NCBI GenBank assembly: GCA_963677485.1
Contig: OY781964.1
Coordinates: 1,248,001-1,312,000 of the forward strand
Direction of reading: 5' to 3'
DNA: 64,000 nucleotides
DNA from: Armatimonadota bacterium
Lineage (GTDB): Bacteria > Armatimonadota > HRBIN16
In this document: positions 47,049 to 52,866 of the stretch, one piece after another
Layout of the letters: each line of letters starts with the position of its first letter
How positions within the stretch are numbered: position 1 is the first letter of the stretch
Made by a program: the position numbers and the translations under genes
Notes under the pieces: model-generated
Told to the model about the DNA's origin: nothing
The model's input: the letters and a program-made list of their open reading frames with translations, nothing else
Database searches by the model: none

Positions 47049-48539
47049 ATGCTTAATGCCCCTGATGTAAAGCTTGCGCTGGTCGGCGTCAGCCGCGACT
47101 GTTTCCCCATCGAACTCACCCGAACACGGCTAGGCAAGCTGGCCGAGGCCTGCAAAAAGATCGGTCTGGATGTTTACGTGGCCGAAACCGTGATCGAAAA
47201 TGAGGTTGATTCGAACGCTGCGCTGGACGAGGTGCTCGCGAATGGCGCCAACGCCGCCGTGGTCTACCTGGGCAACTTCGGCCCCGAAGGCCCGCTCAGC
47301 ATCTTCGCGGAGCAGTTCCCCGGCCCGGTGATGGCCTGCGCGGCCGCGGAAGAGTCCGGCAATAACTTGATACAGGGCCGCGGCGATGCTTATTGCGGCA
47401 TGTTGAATGCTAGCTATAACTTCAGCCTGCGGCAGGTCAACGTGCATATCCCCCAAATGCCCGTTGGCTTGGTGGATGAACTGGCTGAGAAGATCGCCCA
47501 TTTCGAGACGGTCGCCCGCATCGTGATCGGTGTGTGGAACCTGAAGATATTCGGATTTGGCCCACGGCCGCAGGACTTCTTTGCCTGCAATGCGCCGATC
47601 AAGCCGTTCTACGACCTGGGCGTTGAGGTGATGGAGAACAGCGAGCTCGACATGTTCGAGCAGTTCAACAAAACATCAGGCGAGGACGCTGAAGTGAAGG
47701 CCGTTCTAGCCGATATGACAAAGGAGTTGAACAACTGCTGCGGAAACAACCATCCGGGGATACTTCCCAAGCTGGCCCGTTTTGAAGTGGCACTACTCCG
47801 ATTCGCAGAGAAGAACATCGGCAGTCGTGACTTCGCCGTCTTCGCCAACAAGTGCTGGCCCGCGTTTGAAACCAGCTTCGGATTCGTGCCCTGCTTTGTC
47901 AACAGCCGCCTGAGCAGCCGCGGCATCCCGGTGGCATGCGAAGTAGACCTGTATGGCGCGCTCAGCGAGTATATGTGCTATCTGGCAAGCTGCCAGCCTG
48001 CCACCTTGCTGGATATCAACAACACTGTGCCCCGCGACATGCTGAAAGGTGCTGACCTGAAGGGTGCCGCAGTTGACGACCTCTTTATGGGATTCCACTG
48101 CGGAAACACCCCCAGTTGCTGCATGAAGAACTGCAGCATGAAGCACCAGTTGATCATGAACCGCCTGCTGGAAGACCCCACCAAGGAGCCAGACATCACC
48201 CGAGGCACACTCGAAGGCCAACTGAAGCCCGGTGACACCACCTTCTTCCGTCTGCAGGGTAATGCAGCCGGCAAGCTGGTGAGTTACGTGTGCGAGGGCA
48301 GCATCCTGGATATCGATCCGCGCAGCTTCGGCTGTATCGGCGTGTTCGCCATCCCCAACTTCGGCCGCTTCTACCGCCATGTGCTCATCGGCAAGCAGTT
48401 CCCGCACCATGGCGCCGTGGCCTTCAGCAAGGTCGGCAAGGCGCTGTATGATGCGGCCTTGATGCTGGGTGTGGAGGATATGAACGTGCCGCTACCCGCC
48501 AGCATGTGGTATCCCACCGAGAACCCGTTCGAGCTTTAG
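47049..48539 (+). CDS. L-fucose/L-arabinose isomerase family protein
   Basis: YLGNFGPE, RGDAYCG, KCWP, CEVD, FHCG, PHHGA. Confidence 0.85.
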   Translation: MLNAPDVKLALVGVSRDCFPIELTRTRLGKLAEACKKIGLDVYVAETVIENEVDSNAALDEVLANGANAAVVYLGNFGPEGPLSIFAEQFPGPVMACAAAEESGNNLIQGRGDAYCGMLNASYNFSLRQVNVHIPQMPVGLVDELAEKIAHFETVARIVIGVWNLKIFGFGPRPQDFFACNAPIKPFYDLGVEVMENSELDMFEQFNKTSGEDAEVKAVLADMTKELNNCCGNNHPGILPKLARFEVALLRFAEKNIGSRDFAVFANKCWPAFETSFGFVPCFVNSRLSSRGIPVACEVDLYGALSEYMCYLASCQPATLLDINNTVPRDMLKGADLKGAAVDDLFMGFHCGNTPSCCMKNCSMKHQLIMNRLLEDPTKEPDITRGTLEGQLKPGDTTFFRLQGNAAGKLVSYVCEGSILDIDPRSFGCIGVFAIPNFGRFYRHVLIGKQFPHHGAVAFSKVGKALYDAALMLGVEDMNVPLPASMWYPTENPFEL

Positions 48540-48609
48540 AGCGGCGTTGGTGGGACGGGACGGGACCGGTTGACGGGCGCGGAGACCGCGCCCCTTGTAT
48601 GCTTATAGA

Positions 48610-48825
48610 TGGAGGTCCTCAGACCTTAACCCAAGACTTGAGGACCATCCTCACACCGGGACGCTGGGGTGAAAGAGAAGGGGTAGATGCCGTCGCGCCC
48701 CTTGTAGCTTTGACTACGCGACGTAGAATGGCACCCTTCTCTGCAATGACCTAACACGAACAGTATCATGGGCTAAAGCCCGCATTTACAAGGATGTCAA
48801 GGTTGATTGCTTCACCTGTGTCCCT
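48610..48825 (+). ncRNA. IS110 bridge RNA (5' hairpin + target-binding loop + donor-binding loop); ends approximate
   Basis: LTG CGCGCCCCT 48693-48701, RTG CGTAG 48722-26, LDG ACAGTATC 48760-67, RDG TACAAG 48787-92. Each guide pair lies in the internal loop of a stem-loop. Confidence 0.88.
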
Positions 48826-48845
48826 AACTAGGAGCATACCGGACT

Positions 48846-50009
48846 ATGCAAATCAATGGCAACTCGTACAGCTACTACGCTGGGATCGACATATCTAAAG
48901 ACACTTTCGACGTGTCGGTCGTTGATCAAGACGGCACCCATCTGATCCACAAGCAGTTTGTGAACAACCAGAAAGGCTTCAAAGAGCTGGTGTCACTCAC
49001 CAGGAAGCAAGGCTGGATGCCTGTGCTATTCGCAATGGAAGGCACTGGCGGATGTGAGCAAAAGCTGCTTGACTACCTGTATAAGCATAAGCAGGCAGTC
49101 TCACGGCAAGAACCCTGTCGAATACACTATCATCGCCTCTCACAAGGATCTCGGCAAAAGACAGACTATGTAGACAGCCTGATCATTGCTGACTACGCAC
49201 TAAAGAACCGCCTGCGGCTCTACATTCCTAAAGGCGAAAGCTATCGGGCGCTGCAGGAGATCGGTCGCACACGGCGCATGCTGGTCAGACACCGGAACTC
49301 CCTGCAGCAGAGGCACTCTCACGCGCAGAACCTGCATGCCAAAGCGGTTCTTCAACGCAGCATAGATCACTGCACAGAGGATATCGATCTTTTGAACTCC
49401 GCGGCTGCTGAGATTATCGCCAGCAATGACAGGCTAGCGGAAGATTATCGCCTCCTGAACAGTATTCCGGGTGTAGGTGATATCACATCCAACTACTTTC
49501 TAGGGCTCATCGGTGATATATCTTGCTTTGCGACGTCTGCGAAGATAATCCGATTTGTGGGTATGAACCCATGCCCGCACCAGTCAGGAACCAGCATCGA
49601 TTCCGAAAGCAGCATATCCAAAATGGGCGATCCCTACATGCGCTCCTTGTTATACACCAGTGCCATGGCTGTATTACATATGGTGGATCACAATTCGAAA
49701 GCACTCCATCGCATGTATCGGTTCGTGGCCAAAATGCGGGAGAGATTCGGCCCGAGTTCTAGCAGGAAGGTCGTATGCGCGGTGATGCGCAAGCTGCTGA
49801 TCTTGATGTGGGCTGTGTTGACCAGGCGTAAGGTTTACGATCCGTGCTACGGACTAGAGCCGCAGGATGCTCCGGCCAACCAGACACCGCAATCCGACGA
49901 CACTGGCCTTGTCCAGTCTCGTGCCGAAGCGGCCTCAGATTTTGCCGGCGAAGGCAATGATGCTGGGCAGGACAGTGGCGTTCCAGGATTGGGATGTCTG
50001 GATGGATAG
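48846..50009 (+). CDS. IS110 family DEDD recombinase/transposase
   Basis: GIDISK, AMEGTG, KTDYVD (DEDD RuvC-like), SIPGVG, HQSG (catalytic Ser motif), SKMGD, AVMRKL. Confidence 0.96.
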   Translation: MQINGNSYSYYAGIDISKDTFDVSVVDQDGTHLIHKQFVNNQKGFKELVSLTRKQGWMPVLFAMEGTGGCEQKLLDYLYKHKQAVSRQEPCRIHYHRLSQGSRQKTDYVDSLIIADYALKNRLRLYIPKGESYRALQEIGRTRRMLVRHRNSLQQRHSHAQNLHAKAVLQRSIDHCTEDIDLLNSAAAEIIASNDRLAEDYRLLNSIPGVGDITSNYFLGLIGDISCFATSAKIIRFVGMNPCPHQSGTSIDSESSISKMGDPYMRSLLYTSAMAVLHMVDHNSKALHRMYRFVAKMRERFGPSSSRKVVCAVMRKLLILMWAVLTRRKVYDPCYGLEPQDAPANQTPQSDDTGLVQSRAEAASDFAGEGNDAGQDSGVPGLGCLDG

Positions 50010-50319
50010 CCACCGTGTGGTTCATCCTTGGCCCCAAGTGGTTGAGCAGCATTCCAGAGCCGGCGAGTCAGCGGTAGAAAGATATGATCACCACTAGCTA
50101 GCTGCTCTTGATCTAGCCGCTAAAATGAACATCATTAGAACGTTATCTTTAAAGCCTCAAAGATGCGGGGTGGGCGTTCATCACTACGGATGACGGGCAA
50201 CCCTTTGCATAACGGTGCATCTTCGCGTGGGACCGGCTTGTGCCATGAGCTTGGGTATACCTAAGGTCTATTTGCCACATTGCATAATATAAACGTTGTC
50301 CGCAGAACGTTATGGGCAT

Positions 50320-50350
50320 AAATCTGGTATTTCGGACAAATACCAGATTT
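50320..50350. terminator. Perfect 13-bp hairpin in the IS110 right end
   Basis: AAATCTGGTATTT-CGGAC-AAATACCAGATTT, just upstream of the outward-facing TTGACA. Confidence 0.55.
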
Positions 50351-50577
50351 CACCCTCGGAGGCCTTGACAAATAACACAGTATCTACGGTCAATTGTAGG
50401 GGCGCGGTCTCCGCGCCCAATGTATTCCGCGCCCACGGGCGACGGCCGGTCGCCCCTGTGATCATCTGTCTCCCGATTGACGTACGACCTTCCTATTCGC
50501 GTTCATTCGCGTTCATTCGCGGTTAAACATACCCTACCGGAAAAGTGACGAGTAGGACAGGCGGCTGCCCTACCGCG

Positions 50578-52866
50578 TTATTTCGCCGGTTGGATCGTGA
50601 ACCGGTCGATTCGGATGGCTTTGATGTTCGGGTTCACTATCGGTGCCACAAACAAGTACATGCCCGGCGTGAGCTCGATCCCTTTATACACCATCTGCTG
50701 ATAGCCAGGCTTGATATCAGCCACAGTCAGCACACTGGTTGTCGTCTTTTCGGTGATTTTGTTACGTATGCCAAACTGCAGCACGCCATCGGTTGGCTGG
50801 CCGGCTTTACCTTCAGCGGGTATCACCTTCACCTCCAGGCTGACATCTACTTTGGGCCACTTCACCTCACCTTCGTAGATGTGGTGCTGCACGGCCCACT
50901 CGGTATGGCTGCACGGCATCTCCGCGGCGTAGCCGTTGCTGGCTTCTGGGTCCTTCACGATATTGACCCAGTTCCCCTCTTCAGCCAGGTTGAAGTCACC
51001 CTCTTGTGCATCCAGCCAGTCCACCCCTTGGACCCCGCTCACGCCCATCGCTGTGTCCGCTTTGGGATAGCTGGGAGGCGGTGCGATCTTGGCCTTGAGC
51101 TGAGTGCGAAAGCCCTCATCCCACTTACGGCCTTCACTGGGCCAGTTGTTTCCGGTTTGGTTGCTCAAGTCCGTGAAGTGATCCACTATGGTGTCCCAGT
51201 TGATCCCTGGCACCTCTTGATGTGCCTGTGCGAGGTTGCGTTTGGTGTTGATCAACACCAGATCCAGTGCCAGGCGTTGAATCTGCACGCGTTTCAGCAA
51301 CGTCGGGTTGTTCTTGACGGCCGCTTCGGCTTGATCGTATAGCCTCTTGAACTTCGTCAGCTCATCGATGTTGTAGTAGTCCGCATTACCGATGTAGCAC
51401 GAAAGCCGCACACCCGAACGTTTGCGGGCCGCTTCCATCGCCAGCACCGCTTCGAGCAGCGGCTTGCCAGCCGGACCGTAATACCCATCCATGAACTCCT
51501 TCATGATGGGCAGTTCGGGCTGGTAGGGGTTCCACATCAGCTTGGACAGCAGATAGACCTTCAATGGATGCATGGTGGAATCCACGTTGAAGCTGTCGCC
51601 TTGTTCAAACATGCCCACCACGTTGTTCTCAGTGAAGCTGCGCAGGTCGGACCCAAGGATGCTGAAGTTCGGGTGAGGAATGAGATAGCTTGAGAAGTCC
51701 ACGACGTAGTTCCATACATACAGCCGTTTCGCGATCTTTTTCCAGTCCGTAAGGTCCTTATAGAATGACTTATTCTCTGCGGCTGTGATAGGCTTGCCAA
51801 AGTCATTCTCGATGCTGCACAGACGCACAATCACGTTGTCGCGCGGTTTAATGTTGGTAGGCGCATGGCGAGTATACTGGTATGCCAGTGTCTCCACAAG
51901 GAAGTCGGGGTACTGCTTTTCAATTTCAACGGCCACGTCGTTGACGAAGCTGATCAGAGCACCAGATTCGGAGCCAGTCTTCTTGACCAGTTCTTTGCAC
52001 TTGTCACACTGACAAGGACTCATATCGTCATTCTGCGTGATAGAGATCATGCCGGCATCGGGCTGTTTGCGAATGGTGTCCAGCGCGACCTTCACCATCT
52101 CCCGCTTCATATCCTCATTGGTCAGGCACATCTGGGTGTAACCACCGTCACGCTTACCGTTGATCAGCGAATACCACTCAGGATGCTGCGCATAGTATTT
52201 AGCGGCAGGCAGCATTTTGTCGAAGGTATGCACAAATCCCAGCAGGTTGTAATGCCCGCCCATCTCGGGCTTGATCTGTTGATGGTGCCCATTCATGCGC
52301 ATATGCACAGGGAAAAGGTCATCCTTCTGTATCACGTTGTAGAAATAGGCCTCGCGATACATCAGCTTGGGTGTGTAACAAACATTCATGGCTGGCACAG
52401 TGATGGTCTTTAACTTGGGAATACGCTGCGCATCCGGGGCATACCAACGCACGCCCAGTTTCGTCTCCAGCAGCTCCTGCACCGCGTAGATGCTGCCCCT
52501 GGGACGATCACCAGATAGTATCAGGTCGCGGCCAGTGGTGCGGATCAGGATGCCATCACGGCGAAGCTGCTCCCAGTTGAAGCCCTTCATCAGCCGTTTG
52601 ACCACGGCGGTCTGACCCACAAATATCCGCGTGCCTGCGGAGGGTGCAATATCGGTGATTTTCAACCGGGCACCACTCATCTGCTGGATCGTGTCCGCGA
52701 GTTGTTTCGCAGCAAACCGCTCCGGCGCGGTGGCGTCCGTGCCCAGCACGATGGTGGCGGTCGGCTTTCCCGATTTCACGACAGTCAACGGCGAGGCTGC
52801 CTTGGCGGGCAGGCTGGCCAACACCAGCAACGGCAAAATGCACGGAATGAGATCACAGACATTCAT
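50578..52866 (-). CDS. Secreted DUF4838 domain protein (paralog 3)
   Basis: Signal peptide, RGSIYAV..LLE..LGVRWY, FVHTF, HPEWY, CQCDKC, TLAYQYT. Confidence 0.85.
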   Translation of the reverse strand: MNVCDLIPCILPLLVLASLPAKAASPLTVVKSGKPTATIVLGTDATAPERFAAKQLADTIQQMSGARLKITDIAPSAGTRIFVGQTAVVKRLMKGFNWEQLRRDGILIRTTGRDLILSGDRPRGSIYAVQELLETKLGVRWYAPDAQRIPKLKTITVPAMNVCYTPKLMYREAYFYNVIQKDDLFPVHMRMNGHHQQIKPEMGGHYNLLGFVHTFDKMLPAAKYYAQHPEWYSLINGKRDGGYTQMCLTNEDMKREMVKVALDTIRKQPDAGMISITQNDDMSPCQCDKCKELVKKTGSESGALISFVNDVAVEIEKQYPDFLVETLAYQYTRHAPTNIKPRDNVIVRLCSIENDFGKPITAAENKSFYKDLTDWKKIAKRLYVWNYVVDFSSYLIPHPNFSILGSDLRSFTENNVVGMFEQGDSFNVDSTMHPLKVYLLSKLMWNPYQPELPIMKEFMDGYYGPAGKPLLEAVLAMEAARKRSGVRLSCYIGNADYYNIDELTKFKRLYDQAEAAVKNNPTLLKRVQIQRLALDLVLINTKRNLAQAHQEVPGINWDTIVDHFTDLSNQTGNNWPSEGRKWDEGFRTQLKAKIAPPPSYPKADTAMGVSGVQGVDWLDAQEGDFNLAEEGNWVNIVKDPEASNGYAAEMPCSHTEWAVQHHIYEGEVKWPKVDVSLEVKVIPAEGKAGQPTDGVLQFGIRNKITEKTTTSVLTVADIKPGYQQMVYKGIELTPGMYLFVAPIVNPNIKAIRIDRFTIQPAK

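Follow-up and report, generated by a model that had tools for sequence, protein, structure and literature searches.

A probable split junction promoter in an IS621-like bridge-RNA insertion sequence of an uncultured Armatimonadota bacterium

Background

The junction promoter (Pjunc) of an insertion sequence is assembled on the circular intermediate from a -35 box provided by one end of the element and a -10 box provided by the other, and leads to increased transposase expression. Members of the IS3, IS21 and IS30 families carry DDE transposases and terminal inverted repeats, and in the IS1111 group the guide RNA sits downstream of the recombinase gene. The Pjunc principle, as set out in the portions of the literature consulted for ISEc11 and IS492 (IS1111/IS110 family) and for the IS3, IS21 and IS30 families, is shared by the element described here.

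The closest described system is IS621. In the part of the report by Durrant et al. (2024, PMC11208160) on which we rely, the circular form of IS621 reconstitutes a sigma70 promoter across the core; the junction reads TTGCAG, 15 nt to the end of CT, TG and TATTAT, and the first base of the RNA is the 7th after the -10 box. Small RNA-seq in the same report places the RNA start at the junction promoter in IS621 and five orthologues. A 22-bp IS621 donor lacking the -35 box works only with the RNA provided in trans, and loss of the -35 box abolishes expression in cis (PMC11208160). The sections consulted also give CT as the conserved core of IS621-type elements and describe their donor as more conserved than the target. 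A 2026 Nature paper (PMC13626964) confirmed the IS621 junction promoter by RNA-seq and, in its consulted part, describes integrated copies as weakly expressed via read-through, at a level which is enough for rare excision.

Two further elements are found in Pseudomonas putida KT2440, where ISPpu10 has a junction promoter and ISPpu9, in the consulted part of the report (PMC12288879), is described as lacking one and relying on its own promoter, Ptnp; each of the two makes an antisense sRNA (Asr9 in ISPpu9 and Asr10 in ISPpu10). Junction promoters in IS110 circular intermediates, which the initial annotation of the present locus had taken as established, are on these accounts experimentally shown for IS621 and ISPpu10.

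Here we describe an element of this kind in a 64,000-nt stretch of DNA (hereafter the window) from an uncultured Armatimonadota bacterium (assembly GCA_963677485.1, contig OY781964.1, positions 1,248,001 to 1,312,000 of the forward strand). All positions refer to the window unless another sequence is named.

Results

Identity, copies and ends of the element

The element occupies positions 48596..50385 on the + strand and is an insertion sequence of the IS110 family, IS110 group (bridge-RNA, IS621 type), 1790 bp in length. The coordinates of its parts are collected in Table 1.

Table 1. Features of the insertion sequence and its immediate flank, in window coordinates
Feature	Position	Strand	Basis or remark
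Target hairpin, GC-rich, REP-like, 8-bp stem, 3-nt loop	48575..48593	+	sequence and fold
CT core, left-junction copy	48594..48595	+	flanks of both copies read ...GCCCCT, element, ACG...
Predicted -10 half, TATGCT	48598..48603	+	positions 3-8 of left end; overlaps right-donor bases
Bridge RNA	48610..48816	+	fold, five-lineage consensus structure, guides
Bridge RNA 5' stem-loop	48611-48650	+	fold
Target-binding loop: left target guide, core, handshake bases	48694-48706	+	match to flank
Target-binding loop: right target guide	48720-48728	+	
Donor-binding loop: left donor guide	48760-48767	+	repeats end of right end
Donor-binding loop: right donor guide	48782-48793	+	
Recombinase gene, 387 aa	48846..50009	+	PF01548 (1.1e-26), PF02371 (4.1e-21)
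Perfect 13-bp hairpin, 14 nt upstream of -35	50320..50350	+	fold -18.2 kcal/mol, z -2.75
Predicted -35 half, TTGACA	50365..50370	+	ends 15 nt before element end
Left-donor bases and CT core, end of right end	50376..50385	+	match left donor guide; 3' part of spacer

Five related lineages were compared. Lineage A, the reference for identity, comprises the window element and a second copy in the same genome; lineage B has 12 copies in this genome, with a recombinase 46% identical to that of A, and lineage C has nine copies in a sister genome (84% identity). Lineages L063 and L065 are represented by a single copy each on metagenome contigs (87% and 86% identity, respectively). In the metagenome scan of 80 loci only L063-L065 were close, with L064 lacking the end of the right end, and the remaining 77 loci (23-35% identity) were left out of all counts. 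The five lineages are kin, and for this reason they do not amount to five independent trials. Of 18 genomes in the order, 2 gave a match at E up to 1e-40, as did, at E up to 1e-50, 2 of the 401 sampled in the phylum, both in the same genus, and a blastn search in distant mode against 5,426 E. coli genomes returned no DNA match.

The ends of the element are fixed in three ways, by the second genomic copy, by the bridge-RNA guides and by the four related lineages, and all three bear out the boundaries that had been proposed from the sequence of the locus. In a search of its own genome, the identity between the window copy and the second copy (G000:C1:2667677-2672038) spans 48590 to 50388 and no further. 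To the left of both copies the DNA ends in ...GCCCCT and to the right it begins with ACG..., the target of A being ...GCGCCCCT followed by ACG.... On the evidence of the bridge-RNA guides (three observations), the few flank bases which the two copies have in common represent target similarity and not the element. The left flank together with the first four bases of the element (48587-48599) recurs within the RNA-coding left end, at the position where bridge RNAs of the IS621 type hold the left target guide together with the core and the handshake bases. In each of A, B and C this guide is identical to the left flank, so that it changes from lineage to lineage along with the flanks (...GAACCGCCCCT for family B, ...GGGTCATCCCT for family C). 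The left donor guide, for its part, repeats the end of the right end. It follows from the guide repeats and from the covariation of the guide with the flanks that the element extends from 48596 to 50385.

Each junction has a CT dinucleotide, one lying in the flank at 48594-95 and the other within the element at 50384-85, so that the joined sequence and its spacing are identical whichever CT is assigned to the element. In every one of the 2 A, 12 B and 9 C copies the flanks take the form ...CT, element...CT, A..., the ends of the element are not inverted repeats, and there is no target duplication beyond the core. The second copy is interrupted at the equivalent of 49217-49222 by an IS21-family element of 2563 bp (L146:55-2617), which encodes IstA (rve and Mu-transposase C-terminal domains) and IstB and is flanked by a repeated GCTCTA. 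The window copy is therefore the only intact one in the genome.

Insertion is sequence-specific and directed to repeated palindromes across the A, B and C copies: the window element directly follows the 3' arm of its target hairpin, and a GC-rich hairpin whose 3' arm abuts the element also closes all the left flanks of the second copy and of families B and C. An inverted copy of the window target hairpin lies in the right flank at 50400-50418. Family B is itself an IS110-group element of about 1812 bp, found in 12 places in G000:C1 (e.g. 1660604-1662415) after GGGCGGTTCGCGAACCGCCCCT-type hairpins; in two of its copies the protein matches only from residue 166 on, and these copies may be broken. 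Further along the right flank, at 50480-50527, CGCGTTCATT is repeated three times in tandem, and contig depth there is much higher with many loose ends; this is a dispersed repeat.

Bridge RNA and recombinase

The bridge RNA that had been placed in the left end is upheld by its fold, its consensus structure and its guides. As a single sequence it folds at -85.3 kcal/mol (z -3.65). A consensus structure built from the five lineages contains 62 pairs, of which 9 show compensatory changes, and conservation is lowest in precisely the columns of the left target guide. No Rfam family was matched in 48000-51000 at E up to 1.

Both Pfam domains of a DEDD recombinase of IS110 type are present in the encoded protein, and an AGGAG ribosome-binding site lies at 48831-48835. 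The protein aligns over residues 10-325 with the IS621 transposase chain 8wt6_A (E 1.1e-24). Residues D15, E65, D107, D110 and S247, which we take to be catalytic, are invariant in the alignment of the A, B and C recombinases and align with the GID, EATG, KTDxVD and SGSS motifs of the IS621 chain. The C-terminal tail (49860-50006, residues ~340-387) lies past the region alignable with IS621 and is well conserved between A and B despite their 46% overall identity.

A promoter split between the two ends

In the initial annotation, the two ends of the element were read as halves of a promoter which forms only after excision. The sequence is exact on both sides: in the right end TTGACA is followed by 15 nt (50371-50385) ending in CT, and the left end begins with TG (48596-48597) followed by TATGCT. 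Joining the ends at the CT core gives TTGACA-N17-TATGCT, as was proposed, and this site points into the bridge RNA and the recombinase gene. The -35 box matches the consensus at 6/6 positions and lies wholly within the right end, the spacer is of 17 nt, and the -10 box, wholly within the left end, matches at 4/6 positions, with both critical bases, A2 and T6, in place. We conclude that the joined site is very probably a split junction promoter (Pjunc), carried by a bridge-RNA insertion sequence that belongs to the IS110 group and resembles IS621.

Three other assignments of the boxes were considered and rejected. TATAGA at 48604-48609 would, as a -10 box, leave a spacer of 23 nt; the TG dinucleotide is one base too close to the hexamer for an extended -10; and TTGACG at 48570-75, as a native -35 box for TATGCT, would leave a spacer of 22 nt. 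With TATGCT as the -10 box, the bridge RNA is predicted to start at 48609-48611, 6-8 nt after the box, and the 5' stem-loop of the RNA begins at 48611, adjoining the predicted start.

This is similar to what is described for IS621 in the consulted part of the literature, where the layout is the same base for base: the -35 box is 15 nt before the end of CT, the -10 box starts at base 3 of the left end and the spacer is of 17 nt. The RNA start about 7 nt after the -10 box, the 5' stem-loop followed by target- and donor-binding loops, the insertion after a REP-type hairpin at ...CCT, AC... and the two recombinase domains are likewise the same. The 14-nt donor is identical to the wild-type donor of E. 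coli IS621, despite the remote kinship of the two recombinases and the distance between the hosts. The boxes themselves differ, being TTGCAG and TATTAT in IS621 and TTGACA and TATGCT here; the right end of the present element is much longer (376 nt) and carries conserved hairpins; and the host is uncultured and non-proteobacterial.

In part 20 of the published donor/bridge-RNA alignment, inspected by eye, 19 of the 44 lines have a TTGnnn-N16-18 -10 pair spanning the core, 6 have TTG in place with a weaker -10 box, and 19 have neither; the lines are not independent. A split promoter is, on these counts, common but not universal, in line with the difference between ISPpu9 and ISPpu10. The 21-nt right-end termini of A, B and C found no match among the listed part of the published donor alignment.

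Conservation of the split site

In all five lineages the best joined site has TTGACA 15 nt from the right end, a 17-nt spacer and a -10 box starting at base 3 of the left end. The -10 box is TATGCT, or TACGCT in B (TAYGCT overall). Four of the five spacer bases next to the -35 box vary among the lineages (AATAA, AAAGC, AAGTG), whereas TTGACA is invariant in 5/5.

Some of this constancy could have another origin, in that the hexamers may be conserved for recombination, as part of the donor site, as subterminal repeats or as a recombinase contact, and merely look like a promoter. TATGCT does share bases with the right donor (TGTAT), the pairing partner of the right donor guide, the spacer closes with 10 nt made up of the left donor and the core, and in IS621-type elements, as far as the consulted sources go, it is the donor that is more conserved than the target. 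Since the bridge RNA reads donor bases that fall within the -10 box (4/6), conservation of this box alone is no proof of a role in a promoter. The -35 box is a different matter. It lies outside the 14-nt donor, and the 22-bp IS621 donor without a -35 still recombines when the bridge RNA is supplied in trans, which indicates that the -35 region is unneeded for recombination itself. The five bases that separate TTGACA from the donor vary while the hexamer and its distance stay fixed, and a perfect TTGACA exactly 17 nt from TAnnnT would be an odd coincidence in a pure recombination signal. For these reasons we regard a purely recombinational origin of the hexamers as very unlikely.

Promoter score of the joined site

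The joined site was scored with a sigma70 weight matrix, the hexamer frequencies of which were textbook values. Its score is 13.92, and 178 of the 10,440,028 positions in the genome (both strands) score as high (~1.7 in 100,000); the genome holds 79 instances of the bare pattern TTGACA-N17-TAnnnT. Matches scoring at least 13.9 number 181, as against 60 in a reversed-sequence control, and 67% of them fall outside long ORFs, as against 23% in the control, with 12% of the genome lying outside. The sigma70 consensus is therefore meaningful in this host. We know of no experimental study of promoters in this uncultured bacterium.

A chance match, with the element transcribed only by read-through from upstream or from an unrecognised internal promoter, is less likely still. 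It is true that read-through suffices for excision of the weakly expressed genomic copies of IS621 (PMC13626964), that the upstream gene here (47049-48539) runs in the same direction and stops 56 nt short of the element, and that ISPpu9, according to the consulted part of PMC12288879, uses a native promoter and no junction promoter. However, a match of this quality is rare in the genome, the split site recurs in 5/5 lineages and in IS621, and read-through and a junction promoter are not exclusive of each other, the published model making use of both (PMC13626964).

The integrated element and the search for circles

The integrated copy lacks a comparable + strand site, as shown by both the scores at the junctions and a promoter scan, which agrees with the claim that the promoter forms only upon joining. 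The best sites at the linear left junction score 4.08 and 3.86 (copies 1 and 2, respectively), the left flanks of the two copies offer a -35 of only 2/6 and 3/6 at 16-18 nt from TATGCT, and the scan of 48300-50700 gave no + strand promoter-like site. In this the element differs from ISPpu9, as described in the consulted part of the literature, in having no recognisable native + strand promoter.

The sole promoter-like site in the linear element lies antisense (48833-48862, minus strand; TTGCCA-18-TATGCT), covers the start codon of the recombinase gene together with its ribosome-binding site, and has TTGTCA in lineage C. A single such site against 1.9 expected for the region is within chance; an antisense promoter-like site over the start of the recombinase gene is a likeness to ISPpu9 and ISPpu10, going by the consulted sections on these elements. 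In lineage C (loci L040-L055 of the sister genome G003), the target hairpin gives a -35 of 4-5/6 in 6 of the 9 distinct left junctions (ATGACC, TGGCCA or TTGCCA, 16-17 nt before the left-end -10), and the sequences suggest that integrated lineage C copies may be less silent than the window copy and the switch leakier.

Least probable of all is that TTGACA serves as an outward half-promoter, mainly forming hybrid promoters with the flanks and switching on neighbouring genes when integrated. The box does point outward, 15 nt from the end, and among the 25 distinct right junctions of lineages A, B, C, L063 and L065 there are 3 with a -10-like box (4/6 or better, A2 and T6 included) at a distance of 16-18 nt. 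The other 22 have none, among them both copies of the window element (best right-junction scores 6.21 and 4.83, with 33,659 genome positions reaching 6.21). The bridge RNA dictates AC(G) as the right target bases, so that a good -10 cannot fall at the proper distance, and the next gene (50578-52866) is on the opposite strand. The suggestion, made in the initial annotation, that hybrid promoters could form with flanking DNA is consequently not supported at this copy, which has no -10-like box 16-18 nt past TTGACA and a convergent downstream gene.

Excised forms were sought in several collections. Logan contigs of 4 runs, which drop rare forms, held no back-joined record over 48400-50600; the junction 24-mer and 40-mer occurred 0 times in the genome, finished genomes being unable to show rare circles; and the junction 15-mer occurred 0 times in 145 loci, sequences of a kind that likewise cannot show rare circles. 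A joint of 48594 to 50399 (14 other letters between, sides of 20) was considered as an empty site and rejected, being another locus with the same hairpin pair. The orthologous intergenic region of G003 carries quite different hairpin repeats and no empty site.

Discussion

We suggest that the element described here is controlled by a junction promoter of the kind known from IS621. From the arrangement of its ends we infer that a circular form exists, that the joined promoter is active on it, that transcription starts where predicted and that the recombinase is co-transcribed with the bridge RNA. In the integrated state, the -35 box in the right end and the -10 box in the left end are 1.8 kb apart and face away from each other. 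As the GC-rich target hairpin in front of the left end offers no -35 box, expression would be limited to read-through from the co-oriented upstream gene. At this basal stage, by analogy with the work on IS621, read-through would yield a little recombinase and bridge RNA. The recombinase-bridge RNA complex would then excise the element at the CT cores, bringing the right end against the left end and assembling TTGACA-N17-TATGCT, from which the housekeeping sigma factor of the host could start at about 48610 on the circle. The transcript from the junction would take in the bridge RNA first and the recombinase mRNA beyond it, and the raised levels of both could lead to re-insertion at a new ...GCCCCT, ACG... 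hairpin site.

The long right end may hold additional signals. The sequence of the hairpin at 50320-50350 is kept in lineages C, L063 and L065, and it is possibly a terminator or an insulator. A second stem at 50145-50164 (ATCTTTG...CAAAGAT) has arms that are kept and a loop that varies. The 376-nt right end may hold a terminator or another RNA.

A further, joint reading is that donor and promoter constitute one overlapping code, in which the promoter freezes the donor, and that the 50320-50350 hairpin acts as the terminator or insulator of the system. The identity of the donor with that of IS621 would follow from this, because the -10 box begins in the right half of the donor, and the left half determines the spacing of 17 nt. 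We offer this combined reading tentatively and consider it rather doubtful. If it is true, a promoter-frozen donor would account for the greater conservation of donors than of targets throughout the family, and the hairpin would prevent occlusion of the junction promoter by transcription running around the small circle.

Conclusions

On the sequence evidence, the junction promoter of this element appears to be real and well supported, and its mechanism would be an ordinary one for the family; as the switch has already been published and tested for IS621 and ISPpu10, the element opens no new question in this respect. The junction promoter provides an independent check on the exact ends, the core and the start site of a previously unlisted bridge-RNA element. 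The window copy combines an intact recombinase with a canonical bridge RNA and a junction promoter close to consensus, and is a candidate for a test panel of natural bridge recombinases. The comparison with IS621 shows that the geometry of its promoter, and even the sequence of its donor, hold far outside the enterobacteria.
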